This document shows positions 29,652 to 64,000 of a DNA stretch of 64,000 bases, piece by piece. The DNA is from a virus. The notes under the pieces were generated by a model. The model saw only the letters and a list, made by a program, of their open reading frames with translations, was not told the DNA's origin and did not search any database. Location: the IMG/VR virus record IMGVR_UViG_3300001533_002237, positions 30,309 through 94,308 of that record; one strand, 5' to 3'. The translations under genes were made by a program, and so were the position numbers. The first letter of the stretch is position 1; the number at the start of each line of letters is the position of its first letter.

Positions 29652-29999
29652 ATGGATGATGAAAAAGAAATATTACCTCTTGATAATGATTTATCTGATT
29701 ATATTTCATTAAGTAATCATCTTAAAGATGATACTGAAAGGAAGAAAAAATTAATTTCTAACGAAATTGAAGAACTTGGTGAAACATATATTTTCGAAAT
29801 AGAACGAAAAAGAAAAAATAAAGAATTAAAACAAAAAAAATTAATTCCTTATATATTGAAATATTGTAATGAAAAATATAGTAAAAAAGAGTTAACTTCA
29901 TATAGTTTAGAAGATATACAAGAAATTTATAATCAAATCAAAACTGAAAGAAAATCCCCGATAATTAAATTTATTGAATTTATTTTTAATCTTGAATAA
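29652..29999 (+). CDS. Hypothetical protein
   Basis: 115-aa ORF. Confidence 0.55.
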   Translation: MDDEKEILPLDNDLSDYISLSNHLKDDTERKKKLISNEIEELGETYIFEIERKRKNKELKQKKLIPYILKYCNEKYSKKELTSYSLEDIQEIYNQIKTERKSPIIKFIEFIFNLE

Positions 30000-30043
30000 T
30001 TTGATTATATTTGTTAATTATAAACTTTAAATAATATAATATA

Positions 30044-30838
30044 ATGGTACAAAAACAATTATTTGATGATATTTTTTATCCTCAACGTATTCATGAAATA
30101 CTTTTTTTAAATGTTAAATCAATCTTAACATACCCAACACTTATATTACTTGAGTCAAACAATAAAGTAATGTTTGAGCGTTGGAAATACTTATCGCAAA
30201 GTAAGTATGATACTCTTGATACTGACCAATATGAAGATTTACAAAAAGTCTATGAAAAAAACGCACCATATTATCCTGAATATAGTAAAATTGTTGCAAT
30301 AACATATGGAACTGTTTATATTGAAGATGGGAAATTAAAGCGTTACATGAAAAAGATTGTAAATAATGATGAATTTATTGTTTTGGCTACTTTCATGGAT
30401 GAATTATTCAAAGTATCAAGCGATGGTATTAAGTCAACACCTAATTTTTTTCCAATTCTTTGTGGACATAATATTATTGGTTATGATATTCCTTTATTAA
30501 TGAAAAAATTTATTCAGTATAATGATAGGTTTGAAACAAATAAAACAATTCCTTTAATTCTTAAAAAAAGTTTAACAATTAAACCTTGGGAATCAGGAAT
30601 TATTGATACCCTTAATGTTTGGAAATTTAATGGTTATGATAATATGCCGTTAATGTTAATATCTGATTATCTTGGTCTAAAAAAGACTGTAGATTTACTT
30701 CCACTTGACGAAATGTCAAAAAAATATTGGGAATTATATGATGAAGATATTGAAAAGGCAATGGAATTCGTTTCACTACAATCTGCAACACAAACAAATT
30801 TAGTAATTCAGTTAATTAATACTTTACGAGTATTGTGA
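30044..30838 (+). CDS. PolB-related 3'-5' exonuclease-like protein, ExoI acids apparently lost
   Basis: PEYSKIVAI, LCGHNIIGYDIP, KPWE..IDT..WKF; LFLNVKS occurs where D-x-E is expected. Confidence 0.7.
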   Translation: MVQKQLFDDIFYPQRIHEILFLNVKSILTYPTLILLESNNKVMFERWKYLSQSKYDTLDTDQYEDLQKVYEKNAPYYPEYSKIVAITYGTVYIEDGKLKRYMKKIVNNDEFIVLATFMDELFKVSSDGIKSTPNFFPILCGHNIIGYDIPLLMKKFIQYNDRFETNKTIPLILKKSLTIKPWESGIIDTLNVWKFNGYDNMPLMLISDYLGLKKTVDLLPLDEMSKKYWELYDEDIEKAMEFVSLQSATQTNLVIQLINTLRVL

Positions 30839-30889: not shown

Positions 30890-30990
30890 ATTTTAAGCCG
30901 TTTTAATGAATTATATAATTAAAGCATATACATCTATCAATTAGAATAGAAATTGATTTAAAGTTCATCTAAAATAGATTTTAGATGGTA

Positions 30991-37946: not shown

Positions 37947-38438
37947 TTAATTTAATAGATTATTTAATATTTTTTCTTTTATTCCACTTTGTTTAATACC
38001 TTCATTAGCACGTGGTGTATGAACAAAATAATCACCCAACCAACGACTAAGATTAAGGTCATCAATAGCAAGATATTTTTTTATTCCGTGCTTTTTTGCA
38101 TATTGTATAATATCATATGCACGACATTCTTCGAGTTCAGATAATTTTGTAAATTTATCACCCCATGCAGTACCAGTAACATCACTGATTTTACAATTAA
38201 CTTCATTCCATTCGAATATTTCATTTAATTGTTCAATAGTATAATGATTTTGCCAATCGCTTGACAATATAATAATTGGATTAATTTTTTTTATTATTTC
38301 ATTAAATACATCAACGCATTTTTTATCAAAACGATAACATGCGTATTCTTCATGCCATTTTTTTGGGTTGCTATAATATTGGTTGGTAGTGGCGAGTACT
38401 CCATCTATATCTAAAAAAATATAATGTTTAGATTTCAT
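37947..38438 (-). CDS. HAD-family phosphatase (RNA-repair HAD-like)
   Basis: FLDIDGVL, ILSSDW, AIDD. Confidence 0.8.
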   Translation of the reverse strand: MKSKHYIFLDIDGVLATTNQYYSNPKKWHEEYACYRFDKKCVDVFNEIIKKINPIIILSSDWQNHYTIEQLNEIFEWNEVNCKISDVTGTAWGDKFTKLSELEECRAYDIIQYAKKHGIKKYLAIDDLNLSRWLGDYFVHTPRANEGIKQSGIKEKILNNLLN

Positions 38439-39225
38439 CTAATAATTTTTTTACTCTATCAATATGTTTTTTTGCCATTGGCTTACCACATGTATTTAAT
38501 TTAATAAACGCTTCAAATATAGTCTTTTTATTTGGATTAATCAAATATCCATAAAAAATTGAATAATTTTCAAATTTATTTTTATCCATTCCAGATAACT
38601 CAGAATAATAAAAACCATTATATTTAAAACGGTCTTCATAGAATTCAGCAATTGTTCTAAGTCTTTGTTTACCATCAAGAATTTTATAAAGTTTACCTTT
38701 AAAACTAAAAAGTCGTTGAATAAAAACAAATTTACCAATATCAATATTATCAAAAATACTAGCAATTAAATCATGTTTATCATCTAAACTCCAAACATGT
38801 TCACGTTGATATTCAACATCAAAATCAACACCACTATGATATACCATATTTAATAATGATGAAATAGATGAATTCAATTGAGTAATTCTATATGTTTCTT
38901 CTTTACAAAAAGATGTGTTTTTTCTAGTATCAATATATGGTAATAAATCATGCCATTCAATTATTTGTTGTTCATTTGCAGGTGGTTTATCTCTTTCCCT
39001 TTGAACATTAATATTTTCAATCCTATAATAAAGTCCATCTCTAAATATTTCACGAATATAAGTTTCTTTATGTGCACCATAACAAACTCGTTCACCAACA
39101 CTAAATTTTCTTGTTGGATTTAATGGTAATATACCATAATCAATATTTAATTCAATATCTCTAATTGAAGATTGAAGTAATGATTCTTGATGTGCAATAG
39201 AGTCAATTTTTTTTCGTTTTTTCAT
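38428..39225 (-). CDS. DUF262 (ParB-like) domain protein
   Basis: YQREHVW, ILDGKQRL, FIKLNT.G. Confidence 0.8.
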   Translation of the reverse strand: MKKRKKIDSIAHQESLLQSSIRDIELNIDYGILPLNPTRKFSVGERVCYGAHKETYIREIFRDGLYYRIENINVQRERDKPPANEQQIIEWHDLLPYIDTRKNTSFCKEETYRITQLNSSISSLLNMVYHSGVDFDVEYQREHVWSLDDKHDLIASIFDNIDIGKFVFIQRLFSFKGKLYKILDGKQRLRTIAEFYEDRFKYNGFYYSELSGMDKNKFENYSIFYGYLINPNKKTIFEAFIKLNTCGKPMAKKHIDRVKKLLDEI

Positions 39226-58604: not shown

Positions 58605-58660
58605 GAATCCTAATATTTTTTGAAAATTTTTTCATATCTTTGTACAAATTTGAAAAAGTT

Positions 58661-60400
58661 ATGCTAATACAAGAAAATATTAATTCTAAGCAAATTACTT
58701 TTTATCTAAACAAGATTATTTCAGGGCAGACTGGATTTGAACAGAATTTAGATAAAAAGCACAGAAAGCAAAATGGAGTATTTCTTACTAATTCTATAAA
58801 TACTGTTGAAAATGTTTTAAGTGTCATTGAAATTGACTCAGATATTTTTAGCAAGCGTATTCTTGAACCTTCATGTGGTCAAGGTATTTTCATTTTAAAA
58901 ATTATTGCTGATGTATTTCAAAAATTTCCTGATAAAAAGTTGATTGATGGATTTATTTCAAATAATCTTTTCTTTGTCGATGTACAAGAAGAAATGATTG
59001 AAAAAACAAAATCTAATATTCAATCACTTTACAAATTCCTTTTAGGGATAGAATATACAGGTACATTTAATTCTATTACATGGGATTTCACTGATAAAGC
59101 ACCAGTTGAAACAAACTTATTTGATATACCTAAAAACACACCGTTTACTAATCTTTATAATTCGTTTGATTATGTTATTGGAAATCCACCTTATGTTACT
59201 TTATACGGTAGAAGAGATAAAAAGCAAAACGAAGAACAACGCATAAATTACTTGAAAAATTATAATCAGTTTCCTAATTCTGTAAAAAACGGTAAGATAA
59301 ATTTGGTTATGTTGTTTTTAGAACACTCACTAGATTTTCTTAAAGAGAATGGGAAATTGAGTTTTATTATTGATGTATCTTTTTTTGAAACTGCTTATGA
59401 GCATACAAGAAAATATTTGTTAGACAAAACAAAAATTCTGGAATTACATGTAAATATTAAAGATTTTGATGTTGCAAGCGGACAAGTTATTATTAAAATT
59501 GTAAAATCAAATGGATTAAAGAATAACGATGTTAAGATACAAGACCATAAAACTCAAAATAGTTATTTTATACCACAATTAAGTTGGTTGAATAAAAATG
59601 ACGAATACAAATTTAGATATAATGGTTGTGGTATTTCAAAACAAATCATTGATAAGGTAATTGCAAGGAAAGACAAAACTTTAATGGGGTTGTTCCCTAA
59701 TAAAAACCTTAGAACATGTGTAATGCTGCTTGACATGGAAGATAAATTTACTTTTCAAGATTATACAGGAAAAGATGAAACCCTGATTTATCCCTATTAC
59801 CAAGGTTCAAAAGCACTTTCTGAAAAATATGGCAAATTAAATTTTACAAAATACTTCTATTACAATAAACCGCTTCAAGATTCTATTAATGACGAATTGA
59901 AAATACAACTTGAAAAGGAGGGTGTAAAAAATAAGAAACGACTAGGACTTGGTGAAACTATAATTTATAATAACCCTAAATTATACATTCGCCAGTCTGC
60001 TAAAGAAATAATCTCAACTGTTGACTTAAATAAAAGTTCCGCAAACAATAGTCTGTATGTATTTTCATTACGAAATAATAAACCTGAAACAATAGAATTT
60101 CTGTACTTTTTGTGTGGTTGGTTGAATACAGATTTGATTACATATTATTCCCAGCAGATGAATATAATTCGTTATTCACAAGGCAAGCAACCACAAATTA
60201 AAATATCTGATTTAGGAACAATATTTATTCCTGAAGATAAAATTTTACAGAAACAATTTGGTGATTTGAGTAAACAAATCTATGAATATCCAACAAGAAA
60301 GAACGAAATATCAGATAAGTTGAATAGTTTGATATATCAATATTATGAGTTAAATGAAATTGAAATTGAAACAATTGCGAAAGGGATTAAAGATTTTTAA
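58661..60400 (+). CDS. Type II N6-adenine DNA methyltransferase (gamma class, TaqI/Eco57I-like)
   Basis: LEPSCGQG motif I precedes GNPPY motif IV; C-terminal TRD; TATCTTTG -7 box at 58635 supports ATG 58661. Confidence 0.88.
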   Translation: MLIQENINSKQITFYLNKIISGQTGFEQNLDKKHRKQNGVFLTNSINTVENVLSVIEIDSDIFSKRILEPSCGQGIFILKIIADVFQKFPDKKLIDGFISNNLFFVDVQEEMIEKTKSNIQSLYKFLLGIEYTGTFNSITWDFTDKAPVETNLFDIPKNTPFTNLYNSFDYVIGNPPYVTLYGRRDKKQNEEQRINYLKNYNQFPNSVKNGKINLVMLFLEHSLDFLKENGKLSFIIDVSFFETAYEHTRKYLLDKTKILELHVNIKDFDVASGQVIIKIVKSNGLKNNDVKIQDHKTQNSYFIPQLSWLNKNDEYKFRYNGCGISKQIIDKVIARKDKTLMGLFPNKNLRTCVMLLDMEDKFTFQDYTGKDETLIYPYYQGSKALSEKYGKLNFTKYFYYNKPLQDSINDELKIQLEKEGVKNKKRLGLGETIIYNNPKLYIRQSAKEIISTVDLNKSSANNSLYVFSLRNNKPETIEFLYFLCGWLNTDLITYYSQQMNIIRYSQGKQPQIKISDLGTIFIPEDKILQKQFGDLSKQIYEYPTRKNEISDKLNSLIYQYYELNEIEIETIAKGIKDF

Positions 60401-61106
60401 TTTTATCTTCTTGCAATTTATTAAGTTCTTTGAGTTTATCAATGGACAAATCGGTTTTAAAATTTCCTTGACGCAAATTTTTTAATTGTTCATTTGCCTT
60501 TTTTAATTTTCTTTCATTAGATTCAATTTTCTTCTGAAGTAAAAATTCTAAAAAATCTTCTCTAGTTCTGTAGGATGGAGGTGCAAACCCATTCACTTGC
60601 ATTTGATTTGCGGGTGTTATTCTCATTGTATTACTAACGTCTTTCAGAAAGTATGATTTAACAACTAAATCATTGTGTTTTACAAACTCCAATCCTGTAT
60701 CATTTCCCTTATAGTAAACAAGAATGTATACCAAATAAAAATAACCGCTATTCATCAATGTCAATACCTTGGCAGGAGTTCCACTATCTGGATTTGTGTC
60801 ATCATTATCTACATTTATTGCTTTGAAGTCAATCCAAAGTAATTCACGATGATTATTAATTTCAAAAAAGGTTTGAACATCAAAGGGGTTCTTTGTTTTT
60901 CCTTCTGGCGAAGCTAATGAGTCTCTAAAATATTGGTGTGTTTTTGTAAAATCAACAAACTTATTTTCAAGATATTTGCTTATCCCATCACCAACTCGTT
61001 CTCCTTTTTTTACAGCGATTGCTAATTTAGGGCTACTGTTGATTATTTGTTCAACTACATCATTTAATTGTGCAATTATTAATTCTTCGTATGTTTTAAT
61101 GTCCAT
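60387..61106 (-). CDS. Putative type II restriction endonuclease
   Basis: PD-(D/E)XK-like PFD...WIDFK; convergent with the MTase and directly downstream of a C-protein gene. Confidence 0.7.
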   Translation of the reverse strand: MDIKTYEELIIAQLNDVVEQIINSSPKLAIAVKKGERVGDGISKYLENKFVDFTKTHQYFRDSLASPEGKTKNPFDVQTFFEINNHRELLWIDFKAINVDNDDTNPDSGTPAKVLTLMNSGYFYLVYILVYYKGNDTGLEFVKHNDLVVKSYFLKDVSNTMRITPANQMQVNGFAPPSYRTREDFLEFLLQKKIESNERKLKKANEQLKNLRQGNFKTDLSIDKLKELNKLQEDKIKNL

Positions 61107-61107
61107 T

Positions 61108-61326
61108 TTACTTGAATAAATCTGATTTAAAAAATTCGTAAACGGACATATTCAATGCTTTTGCAATTTTTTCAATATTGGCAACGGAAACATTTCTTTT
61201 TCCTTGTTCAATACTTGCAATGTAGGTTCTATCAAGTTCACATTCAAATGCAAACTTTTCCTGACTAAGACCTTTTAGTTTTCTTAATTCTCTTAATCTT
61301 ATTCCTATTTTTTCTTTAATGTCCAC
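61108..61326 (-). CDS. R-M controller (C) protein, XRE HTH
   Basis: GLSQEKFA...LDRTYIASIEQGKRNVS..NIEKIA; likelier GTG start at 61326. Confidence 0.85.
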   Translation of the reverse strand: MDIKEKIGIRLRELRKLKGLSQEKFAFECELDRTYIASIEQGKRNVSVANIEKIAKALNMSVYEFFKSDLFK

Positions 61327-61361
61327 AAGTGCAAAATTGCACAATTGTAGTTTATCATACA

Positions 61362-61374
61362 ACGGACTATAAGT
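61362..61374 (-). promoter_or_regulatory. C-box operator
   Basis: Minus strand ACTTATAGTCCGT resembles the C.Esp1396I/C.AhdI-type box; about 35 nt before the C gene. Confidence 0.7.
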
Positions 61375-61620
61375 ATAGTTTAGGAAATATTTTGTGATGG
61401 GGAAATTTGGCTCTTTGGCTTTTGCGAAGCAATGGCTTGTGTTTCGGGCAAATGACAATGTGCCAAATGTGTGTCGGTTTTCCGTTTTTCTTTCTTGTGG
61501 GTCGGCAAAAAAAACTAAATCTTTTTCCTTTCAAATCAGTCATTCCGCTTTTCTAGTATTTCGTTTTCAATTCAATCATTTCTGCTCAAGTTTGTCCTTC
61601 GTTGTCTTTCCTCGCCTTGT

Positions 61621-61713
61621 TGGTAACGGTTGGGTGTATGAAACGTAGCCACACGCAACACTTGATATAAACCACTAACCTTAATTGGCTATGTTTTATA
61701 CACCTTGTTATAT
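61621..61713 (-). repeat. attC-like site 1
   Basis: TAAC (61624) + GGTGTATGAAACGTAGCC / GGCTATGTTTTATACACC + GTTA (61707). Confidence 0.8.
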
Positions 61714-61829
61714 GCAGTGCGGAAATATATTACAAACTTTGATACGAGAGATGAACCTTTTTGTTTTATTTTTGTGGGTGGGAAATTAAAATTTGAATAT
61801 TTATATATAGAATAAAACTATTTATTAAT

Positions 61830-62756
61830 ATGGAATTAAGAAAATTTATAGCAACTAGTATACGTGAATATTTGAATGAACAAATTACCTTTGATAATTT
61901 TAATTTAAATTCTGATTTTATTGGTGATTTAAAAAAAGAATTATCCAAATTCAAATCGGATGAAGATTTACTTAGAAGTGGGGGTCTTTCAATTGAATTA
62001 TTAGATAGATTAGCACATGGTTTTTCAGAAGAAGATATAAAAACTCTCAATCCAAATCAATTAAAAATAAAATGGAAAGATGATTTAGAAAATGTTAAAT
62101 GGGAGATAAATAAAAGCGGATTAACACCAAAACAGTGGGCTTTTAAAGTAGATTTATCAGAACCAATTGATGTTTCATATTGGGAAGATAATAAACATAA
62201 AAAAGATTTCTATATTGAGGATGGACATCATAGATATATGGCTGCTAAAATTTTAAATAAACCACTTAATGTTAATTTAGAAATAGAAGTTAATCCCATA
62301 AAGATAATAGCACCAAATATGGGTTATGATGAGTTTCATAGATATATCTTCAAATCATTTAAAAGTGATAAATTAAATGAAGAGTTAATTAATAACAATA
62401 TAATTACCGTTTATCATGGAATAAAACCAAAATTTGTTAATGACATAAAAAGAAATGGTTTAATTGATAAGTCTGGTTATAATCAAGGTTGGTATATGGT
62501 TTCAACTGATTTTGAAAGTGCGTTATTTCATGCACATCCTGATGAAAATGATAATAATGTTTATGTTGTTGAGTTTGAAATCCCTAATAAACAAAATGAT
62601 AGATGGGATGGTTATCCATATTTATGGAAAGGGCAAAAAATGAAAGATAATTCTACTTGGTTTGCATTGATGCAACAAATACCTAAAGAATTTATTAAAA
62701 AAACACATAAAATAAATTATACTGATTGGATTAAACAAAAAAATCGAGGGTTTTAA
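61830..62756 (+). CDS. Cassette gene: ParB/Srx-like plus ADP-ribosyltransferase-like domains with a virion-protein-like N-terminus
   Basis: MELRKFIATSIREYLNE; IEDGHHR; VYHG...GWYMVSTD..SA...VVEFE. Confidence 0.55.
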   Translation: MELRKFIATSIREYLNEQITFDNFNLNSDFIGDLKKELSKFKSDEDLLRSGGLSIELLDRLAHGFSEEDIKTLNPNQLKIKWKDDLENVKWEINKSGLTPKQWAFKVDLSEPIDVSYWEDNKHKKDFYIEDGHHRYMAAKILNKPLNVNLEIEVNPIKIIAPNMGYDEFHRYIFKSFKSDKLNEELINNNIITVYHGIKPKFVNDIKRNGLIDKSGYNQGWYMVSTDFESALFHAHPDENDNNVYVVEFEIPNKQNDRWDGYPYLWKGQKMKDNSTWFALMQQIPKEFIKKTHKINYTDWIKQKNRGF

Positions 62757-62816
62757 AAAATAAAACAAAAAGATTATAACCAAAAAACTTAATACGAAGC
62801 AGAAACGTAGCATTGC

Positions 62817-62924
62817 ATATAACGAACGTTTTAACACAAAACTTAAATAGAATGAATAAATATAACAATTAGTATAAACTTTATTTTGAAAAACGAATAA
62901 AATGTTTTATATTTGTTGTTATAA
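62817..62924 (-). repeat. attC-like site 2 (irregular, AT-rich)
   Basis: TAAC 62820 and GTTA 62918; internal stem AATAAATATAA/TTATATTTGTT. Confidence 0.55.
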
Positions 62925-62950
62925 GTATGTAAAATAAAAACGGTAAAATT

Positions 62951-63115
62951 ATGAAAAAGAAAATTAAAGCAGAATTTAGACAAACTAACATTCAAAATTT
63001 GAATGAGTTGACAGAAGAACAAAAGTTTGAATTTCAGAAAGCACTTGAAAAAGAGTTAGAAAGTAAAAATGAAGAAATTCAAATTTTGATTAAGGAAATT
63101 AATAGTAGTAAGTAG
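62951..63115 (+). CDS. Cassette gene: 54-aa hypothetical protein
   Basis: MKKKIKAEFRQTNIQNLNELTEEQKFEFQ...; fills the cassette. Confidence 0.6.
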   Translation: MKKKIKAEFRQTNIQNLNELTEEQKFEFQKALEKELESKNEEIQILIKEINSSK

Positions 63116-63130
63116 TTTTTATTTTATTAC

Positions 63131-63224
63131 TTATAACGGTTTGCGTATATGAGAAGTGGCACTTGTAGAATGTTAAAATTAAGCACAAATGTTTCTGTGC
63201 CATTTCTTATATACGCTGTTATAA
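63131..63224 (-). repeat. attC-like site 3
   Basis: TAAC 63134 + 20-bp stem GCGTATATGAGAAGTGGCAC / GTGCCATTTCTTATATACGC + GTTA 63218. Confidence 0.85.
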
Positions 63225-63261
63225 GCTGGCTGCGGATTATTAACGATAAACTTTAATTGAA

Positions 63262-63909
63262 ATGAAAATATTAATAGCTTGTGAGGAGAGCCAAGAAGTT
63301 TGCAGAGCTTTCCGAGAATTAGGATTTGAGGCTTATAGTTGCGACCTACAAGAATGTAGCGGTGGAAAACCCGAATGGCACATTGTAGGCGATGCAGTTA
63401 AAGAGGCTTATAGTGGCAAATATGATATGATGATTGCACACCCACCTTGCACTTATATGAGTAGGGCTGGAGCAAGATGGATGTATCCAACGGCAGGTAA
63501 TTTGTGCCAAGATAGATACGCAAAAGCAATGGAAGCTAAAGCTATGTTTTTGGAACTACTTAATGCACCGATTGAACTTATTGCAGTTGAAAACCCAGCA
63601 CCATTAAAAGTAGTTGAATTGCCAAAACATAGCCAAGCGATACAGCCATACGAATATGGACACGAATACAGTAAACGAACTTTATTATGGTTGAAAAATT
63701 TGCCACTATTAAAGCCGACCGATATTAAAAGCAATTATAAGCCGTATTTACCGAGCAATACAGGAGGAAAGAAACGAGGACAAAGTTATAGCAGAGGAGT
63801 TTCAAAGAACGCAAAGGAAAGCTCAAAAACTTTTAGTGGTGTGGCAAAAGCTATGGCTGAACAATGGGGAACTTTCATTCGGAGCAGGAACGTAGCAGCT
63901 TGCTTATAA
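63262..63909 (+). CDS. Cassette gene: phage-type DNA cytosine methyltransferase-like protein
   Basis: LIACEES, SCDL, AHPPCTY, VENP, SKTF.G.A.AMAEQW; stop TAA lies inside the TAAC core. Confidence 0.75.
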   Translation: MKILIACEESQEVCRAFRELGFEAYSCDLQECSGGKPEWHIVGDAVKEAYSGKYDMMIAHPPCTYMSRAGARWMYPTAGNLCQDRYAKAMEAKAMFLELLNAPIELIAVENPAPLKVVELPKHSQAIQPYEYGHEYSKRTLLWLKNLPLLKPTDIKSNYKPYLPSNTGGKKRGQSYSRGVSKNAKESSKTFSGVAKAMAEQWGTFIRSRNVAACL

Positions 63910-64000
63910 CGGCTGGCGGTATGAAACGTAGCGGATTTCGTGGTTGCGAACTTATCCACCGTTACAAACCTTGCAAGCGGGGACTGAACTTACAAATTGC
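63904..64000 (-). repeat. attC-like site 4 (truncated by window end)
   Basis: TAAC 63907 + GGCTGGCGGTATGAAACGTAGC, closely similar to the left arm of site 1. Confidence 0.7.

Follow-up and report, generated by a model that had tools for sequence, protein, structure and literature searches.

The final 64 kb of a 94,308-bp viral contig in IMG/VR (IMGVR_UViG_3300001533_002237), here called the window, has a G+C content of ~25% and carries replication and repair genes of phage type, encoding an SbcCD-like nuclease, a primase, an ATP-dependent ligase, a Dda-like helicase and a GIY-YIG endonuclease. Hairpin sites with TAAC and GTTA boxes at their ends are confined to the last 2.4 kb, where they are separated by three open reading frames (ORFs), all on the plus strand. 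This region (61.6–64.0 kb) is probably the start of an integron-like cassette array on a large AT-rich phage, whose host is probably a member of the Bacteroidota. The array is incomplete here because the contig, which ends with the window, breaks off inside the fourth site. The sites belong to a family also present in bacterial genomes, in which one strand folds better and is richer in G·T pairs. That strand is non-coding in the bacterial arrays, as the bottom strand is in classical integrons, and coding in phages. We propose that the phage array is integron-like with mirror-built cassettes, the G·T-rich strand being the equivalent of the attC bottom strand, and put the probability of this reading at about 70%. 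The features of the region are:

61620–61722, plus strand: site 1, a consensus 103-nt hairpin (TAAC 61624–61627, GTTA 61707–61710)
61723–61829, plus strand: leader of cassette 1, a conserved untranslated stretch common to cassettes of other contigs
61830–62756, plus strand: ORF1, 308 amino acids
62755–62824, plus strand: conserved 70-nt cassette tail, ending at the TAAC box of site 2
62818–62928, plus strand: site 2, with intact boxes (TAAC 62821–62824, GTTA 62908–62911), a decayed 5′ arm and a family-like 3′ arm
62951–63115, plus strand: ORF2, 54 amino acids, a small protein with weak library matches only
63130–63233, plus strand: site 3 (TAAC 63134–63137, GTTA 63217–63220)
63262–63909, plus strand: ORF3, 215 amino acids, with its stop codon within the TAAC box of site 4
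63903–64000, plus strand: site 4, 5′ part only (TAAC 63907–63910), a direct repeat with site 1

Strand asymmetry of the site family

Site 1 combines an asymmetric spacer (5 nt against 2 nt) with a stem of 18–19 bp that includes two conserved G·T pairs. With DNA energy parameters, its plus strand folds at −13.57 kcal/mol and its minus strand at −9.5 kcal/mol, with four G:T pairs and none, respectively; for site 3 the energies are −20.7 and −15.7 kcal/mol, with three G:T pairs and none. The plus strand is the more stable because the stem mismatches are G·T on that strand and A·C on the other. A first-pass annotation of the window had placed its sites here and had noted both the better fold of the plus strand and its G·T mismatches, all of which held. 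Its next step, that the better-folding strand of an integron site is the bottom strand, agrees with published work, where it is a statistical tendency: across 263 mobile-integron sites, attC bottom strands are 2.12 kcal/mol more stable and have more G:T pairs (Nivina 2016, PMC5027507).

A covariance model, R1, was built from 22 sites, with its forward direction set to the plus strand of the window. It scores site 1 at 116.7 bits on the plus strand and 36.9 bits on the minus strand, and site 3 at 70.9 and 26.5 bits. The two stem G·T pairs are kept in 21 and 22 of the 22 sequences in the family alignment. The model-forward strand is the more stable in 62 of 73 distinct viral sites (mean difference −2.14 kcal/mol; 2.8 G:T pairs against 0.9) and in 38 of 49 bacterial sites (mean difference −1.69 kcal/mol; about three G:T pairs against one), a bias similar in size to that of attC bottom strands (Nivina 2016, PMC5027507). 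A better-folding, G:T-rich strand is a statistical feature of integrons; here it lies antisense to the genes in bacteria and sense to them in phages. The sites further share with attC the TAAC and GTTA boxes, a paired consensus stem (19 pairs) and fold energies far below zero on both strands. Their base skew is weak, with G exceeding C by 0.06–0.07 and no A/T bias.

Site 2 went undetected in the R1 search. In contigs from public sequencing runs (X1 and X2), it occurs, at a depth of ~12 of 34, in a form that has 13 additional bases following 62824. This added stretch looks like the 5′ arm of intact sites (L052, L074) and complements the 3′ arm of site 2, so that the copy in the window looks like a deletion variant coexisting with a fuller one.

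A 14-mer from the stem led to about 30 viral contigs bearing this 103-nt site, and R1 found arrays in dozens of IMG/VR contigs, with up to 14 sites per viral contig and a single orientation within each array. Bacterial matches to a two-arm pattern came from Brumimicrobium, Spongiimicrobium, Flavobacteriaceae and Paludibacteraceae, all Bacteroidota, and from a Candidatus Tenebribacter metagenome-assembled genome. Among 50,697 deposited phage genomes, blastn found nothing that matched site 1. There is also a long site form (L143, 10085–10357 and 9238–9456, both on the minus strand; several 140-nt sites), in which an ORF starts in the hairpin loop and crosses the 3′ arm and GTTA into the next unit. 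This form is therefore partly coding.

Gene orientation and recombinases

In viral arrays the longest ORF of every scored inter-site interval is sense to the model-forward strand (52 of 52), as the first-pass annotation had noted for the three phage-like ORFs of the window. Bacterial arrays have the opposite orientation. On a Flavobacteriaceae contig (L108), the gene for a 375-amino-acid tyrosine recombinase precedes six sites that occupy the other strand; the longest ORF is antisense to the sites in four of five intervals, and every ORF on the recombinase strand terminates at the site that comes after it. L109 (one scored ORF) and L099 likewise have their scored intervals antisense to the site strand, and the recombinase genes of L109 and L110 lie opposite the sites, as in L108. 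R1 sites, mostly of the 140-nt form, occur in 27 of 151 sampled genomes from the order of G002, an uncultured Flavobacteriaceae genome. The neighbours of 34 sites, drawn from 27 Flavobacteriales genomes, show the same bias: ORFs that end directly at a site are antisense in 27 of 29 cases, and those on its far side in 24 of 29. The contrast in orientation between viral and bacterial arrays is strong (Fisher p ~2 × 10−19). The integron arrangement, in which genes are co-oriented with the top strand and each is followed by its own attC, is found in the bacterial arrays and not in the phage arrays.

The Flavobacteriales recombinase is XerA-like, 375–381 amino acids long, with an extra N-terminal part of ~105 amino acids (L108, 9408–10535, plus strand; L109; L110; G001:C65). 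Its gene is co-directional with the cassette genes, and in three of four Flavobacteriales contigs 140-nt sites form an array after it. The 375-amino-acid enzyme scores 180 bits on TIGR02249 (cut-off 265), leaves model positions 180–238 unmatched and is closest to archaeal XerA structures.

Relatives of the window array carry a shorter recombinase. In G009 (84 kb), an internal array lies between a sigma-like gene and the gene for a 266-amino-acid recombinase, followed by an NAD-dependent ligase gene, all on the cassette-gene strand. A pattern scan of IMG/VR recovered 92 viral relatives of this enzyme, on contigs of up to 362 kb; those in the 50,697 deposited phage genomes are all below 40% identity. 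At the 80 recombinase loci that were kept, every distinct R1 match shares the strand of the recombinase and, with a single exception (L205), lies upstream of its gene. Several last sites end ~150–400 nt before the recombinase start, and in L202 the tail of the last cassette abuts the recombinase with no hairpin between them. The 266-amino-acid enzyme scores 149.9 bits on TIGR02249, in two stretches. The IntI-specific additional domain near patch III is absent from the phage and bacterial recombinases, which are Xer-type and nearest to archaeal XerA.

The window has the site family and the orientation of these Xer-type phage arrays, and the 266-amino-acid recombinase is seen in relatives only; by comparison with them, such a gene would lie beyond the end of this contig. 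Read along the model-forward strand, the phage layout matches a classical integron read along its bottom strand, with an array followed by a sense integrase gene, which supports a scheme where only the cassette genes would be flipped. The first-pass annotation had placed the canonical direction of the window on the minus strand, with the cassette genes running against it. The opposite orientation in bacteria, the linkage of each hairpin to the gene downstream (below) and the position of the recombinase support this.

Exchange points and competing explanations

Whole-cassette homologue pairs across arrays (70% coverage) were absent from the sample, which precluded a direct comparison of upstream and downstream hairpins; linkage was therefore assessed by comparing 60-nt flanks, after GTTA or before TAAC, across site pairs. 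Where two sites had the 60 nt after GTTA in common (64 pairs), the hairpins were at least 85% identical in 21, against a baseline of 3%. Where they had the 60 nt before TAAC in common (15 pairs), none had similar hairpins, and mean identity was 0.57 against a baseline of 0.52. In the window, blastn blocks starting at 61624 or 61696 cover the leader of cassette 1 as far as ~61827–61910 in at least 13 other loci (78–92% identity), and at least seven contigs match site 1 from TAAC across the hairpin and GTTA into the leader. The tail at 62755–62824 has matches of 88–94% in L152, L150, L202, L170 (two), L052 (two) and L144; eight of ten stop at 62823–62824, at the TAAC box, and the longest extends to 62828. 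These ten tail matches, and five to the module containing ORF3, end at TAAC or a few bases from it, and none enters the hairpin stem. Since homology crosses GTTA and stops at TAAC, the hairpin belongs with the downstream gene. The comparisons support the TAAC box at the 5′ end of the plus-strand hairpin as a candidate constant exchange point; attC bottom strands are cut at the equivalent position (Nivina 2016, PMC5027507).

The body of the site 3 hairpin recurs at 92–94% identity in L160, L158, L144 and L169 with different neighbours. The ORF3 module (63215–63913) is 90–100% conserved in five other contigs (L224–L227 and L237), with different hairpins on both sides. Because at least four different hairpins precede this module, GTTA acts as a second breakpoint in roughly half of the comparisons; exchange may now and then use the other strand, or hairpins may be replaced by homologous recombination. 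Candidate excision products in contigs of four public runs were not accepted: these were de Bruijn break points at repeats, with short-sided joints (21–34 letters).

In the reading we favour, a unit would consist of a hairpin site (TAAC, asymmetric spacer, 18-bp stem with two G·T pairs, loop, GTTA), a leader, a gene and a tail ending in TAAC, and units would be exchanged at the TAAC box. The G·T-rich strand would be equivalent to the recombined attC bottom strand and, in phages, would be the coding strand. Phage cassettes would then be mirror images, each hairpin preceding its gene and the genes facing the recombinase. A promoter beside the recombinase could therefore not drive them, and they would need their own leaders or phage read-through.

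Several observations weigh against this proposal. Bulged extrahelical bases are the main strand selector of attC, and the consensus stem of this family lacks single-base bulges, its asymmetry consisting of two G·T/A·C positions and the 5-nt versus 2-nt spacer. In the proposed bottom strand the spacer has its extra bases on the 5′ arm, whereas canonical extrahelical bases are on the 3′ arm. A single crossover point leaves unexplained how the ORF3 module came to lie behind so many hairpins. No tyrosine recombinase was found on the 94-kb contig, where the array is cut by the contig end; with four sites in 2.4 kb, the locus as it stands is a cluster of attC sites lacking integron-integrases (CALIN). 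The ORFs are longest frames, called with no gene finder. The bacterial arrays resemble canonical integrons in layout only, as their recombinase does not reach the TIGR02249 cut-off and has no IntI insertion. Finally, the single-strand recombination chemistry, the strand that is cut in this site family, the action of Xer-type enzymes on folded single strands, the expression logic and the cargo function are all inferred.

If the plus strand were instead the top strand, the phage array would be a normal, canonically oriented cassette array or CALIN, the bacterial arrays would be the odd ones, and the G·T bias would say nothing about which strand recombines. The window has much of the classical look: every plus-strand ORF is closely followed by a site, ORF3 stops in a TAAC box, and the extra spacer bases lie on the plus-strand 5′ arm, the side on which the classical top strand carries extra bases (VCR and aadA7 sites). 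The breakpoints at GTTA also fit. However, each gene should then travel with the site that follows it and homology should cross TAAC, which happens in none of the 15 tail-sharing pairs and in none of the window comparisons, against 21 of 64 crossings of GTTA. The fold and the G:T bias point the opposite way, the recombinase-adjacent bacterial arrays have the opposite gene orientation, and a last tail can abut the recombinase without a hairpin (L202). On balance we regard this alternative as unlikely. Somewhat less probable again is that the phage hairpins are mainly RNA elements (terminators, processing sites or 3′ protective stem-loops) spread by ordinary recombination, their orientation reflecting selection for a G·U-stabilised sense RNA and no polarity of recombination. 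The phage G·T pairs do lie on the transcribed sense strand, where G·U stabilises; leaders and tails beside the sites are conserved, and some long sites have start codons in their loops. Yet bacterial sites keep the same two G·T pairs although the strand concerned does not correspond to mRNA there, which makes the asymmetry a property of the DNA site. The breakpoints of exchange coincide exactly with the 4-nt boxes, a tyrosine recombinase is tied to the arrays in at least 50 viral loci, and an Rfam scan of 61300–64000 returned no family, only a chance-level miRNA match. A role in RNA and a role in recombination are in any case compatible.

A junction with host DNA, from a prophage boundary or a chimeric assembly, which would make the array uninformative about phages, is suggested by the position of the array at the very end of a contig with a CheckV completeness of 31%, and by the rise in G+C to 0.38 in the last kilobase of the window. 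We consider this very improbable: the G009 array is internal, between phage genes, the same layout recurs in dozens of viral contigs of up to 362 kb, and the gene orientation is of the viral and not the bacterial type. The boundary between the adjoining restriction–modification (R-M) genes and site 1 (60800–61725) is spanned without a single difference by one X1 contig and one X2 contig from independent samples.

Cargo, neighbouring genes and known systems

ORF1 encodes a weak ParB-N-like domain and a C-terminal domain also present in a 182-amino-acid cassette protein of G009; it matches phrog_1033 (E = 2e-4) and has no Pfam hit. Its relatives were found in viral contigs only, among them a copy with 80% identity in a sense-oriented array (L313), and it was found in none of 401 Flavobacteriales genomes. 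Other large phage contigs encode the N-terminal domain by itself, with no convincing sites. The first 18 residues of ORF1 (MELRKFIATTIREYLNE and close variants; 61830–61883) are common to nine other cassette proteins with unrelated bodies (L202 at 7434, L052 at 10294, L150 at 363, L170 at 4057 and 6570, L156 at 3745, L152 at 6858, L083 and L188), which suggests a targeting or processing signal carried by the cassette leader. The first-pass annotation had called this N-terminus virion-type, a putative role that gained no support here, and had also credited cassette 1 with late-type TATTTAT motifs. The motifs lie at 61798 and 61819, one base from the positions it gave, and carry no information, because the window holds 96 matches where 95.2 are expected.

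ORF2 has weak matches to PF25760 (RB18 ORF43.1; E = 7e-4, below the cut-off) and phrog_3826; none of the fetched loci contained a nucleotide relative. ORF3 falls into phrog_757 (E = 4.5e-51), a phage family labelled ‘DNA methyltransferase’ in PHROGs. Its viral relatives number more than 571, and it matched six of the 401 Flavobacteriales genomes, with sites near none of the six. Among the 80 closest viral loci, R1 sites are present in six only, all among the closer relatives, and L229 and L230 encode an 81%-identical protein with no R1 site, cassette leader or tail. The relatives of ORF1 and ORF3 are thus mainly viral, and no bacterial cassette homologues were found, in keeping with the phage affinity proposed in the first-pass annotation. 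The cargo is of phage type and plausibly has a counter-defence role. The first-pass suggestion that phage genes were themselves made into cassettes is plausible, given homologues without sites in other phages.

A complete R-M system controlled by a C protein occupies 58640–61329, adjoining the GIY-YIG endonuclease gene and within the 25% G+C of the phage. It comprises an Eco57I-like methylase, a SwaI-like nuclease and the C protein, with the C and R genes on the minus strand and a palindromic C-box-like sequence directly upstream of the C gene. The first-pass annotation had listed the C/R operon as following the canonical direction of the cassettes. The strand is right, but cassette status is not borne out, as a search for a distal site or an inverted flank partner of the module found none; its agreement with the inferred polarity may be coincidence. 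Between this module and site 1, a 28-nt motif of the cassette 1 leader (61764–61791, containing TTGTGGGT) recurs at 61487–61514 with 75% identity. This second copy, in a G+C-richer, ORF-free stretch, may be the remnant of an older cassette.

The phage arrays resemble classical integrons, especially sedentary chromosomal ones with homogeneous attC sites, in their rows of small genes, their imperfectly palindromic sites with AAC/GTT boxes, one strand of which folds better and is richer in G:T, and their box-exact exchange. Both have a tyrosine recombinase at one end of the array, and reading along the bottom strand gives the position and direction of intI. They differ in their short Xer-type enzyme without the IntI-specific insertion, in sites without bulged extrahelical bases, and in genes that lie on the bottom-strand equivalent with the hairpin ahead, which places them beyond the control of a promoter at the recombinase end; many cassettes have a conserved leader. 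In ‘inverted-integrase’ integrons, known from Treponema and others, the integrase is co-directional with the cassette genes, and the Flavobacteriales arrays have this layout too, although their enzyme is not an IntI. T4-type phages carry promoter–stem-loop (PeSL) mobile regulatory cassettes, reported by Arbiol et al. in 2010 as small genes in plastic regions, flanked by repeated modules of promoter and stem-loop that mediate shuffling, reportedly by homologous recombination. PeSL cassettes are not known to have box-precise breakpoints, a linked recombinase or a bacterial counterpart.

CALINs in phages have already been published. Virulent phages, including Polaribacter phage P12002L, carry them, and attC-like sites flank DNA methyltransferase genes in phages of Flavobacteriia (Qi et al. 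2023, PMC9892861). The site P12002L_attC1 has the same build as the family described here (TAAC-GGCTA-stem-GTTA) and was not recombined by IntI1 (Qi et al. 2023, PMC9892861). In the cultured phage P12002L (L304), R1 finds weak, short hairpins between methyltransferase genes, on the gene strand (29996–30060, 30897–30959, 38022–38094 and 38867–38940, all on the minus strand). The available text of that study reports no dedicated phage recombinase for the arrays and no orientation rule, and it yields no strand call for the family, because its primers leave the delivered strand ambiguous and P12002L_attC1 failed to recombine (Qi et al. 2023, PMC9892861). Literature searches likewise turned up neither such a recombinase nor such a rule, and one on attC and jumbo phages found nothing relevant. 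Our comparisons support a variant on an integron-like platform, in which the cassettes would be mirror-built.

A broader reading, to which we give even odds, is that large phages of Bacteroidota would possess their own Xer-type integron-like platform, with a hairpin and a private leader ahead of each gene on the recombined strand. Host and phage cassette pools would then be separate and mutually unexpressible, and cassettes would be created from phage genes inside phages. The occurrence of one site family in two populations with opposite gene orientation separates site polarity from expression polarity, so that orientation would be set by array transcription and not by the site alone. How integron cassettes arise, and why their genes run in a nearly uniform direction, are open questions, and a phage gene family that occurs both with and without flanking boxes offers matched material for testing cassette genesis. 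The arrays may also represent a large exchangeable store of phage accessory genes, for example for methyltransferase-like and ADP-ribosyltransferase-like proteins, that would escape standard integron finders or be misoriented by them. If the broader reading is true, phage and host would share one site family and possibly one chemistry, and the origin of cassettes would gain a tractable natural system, where copies of one gene exist side by side inside and outside cassettes.

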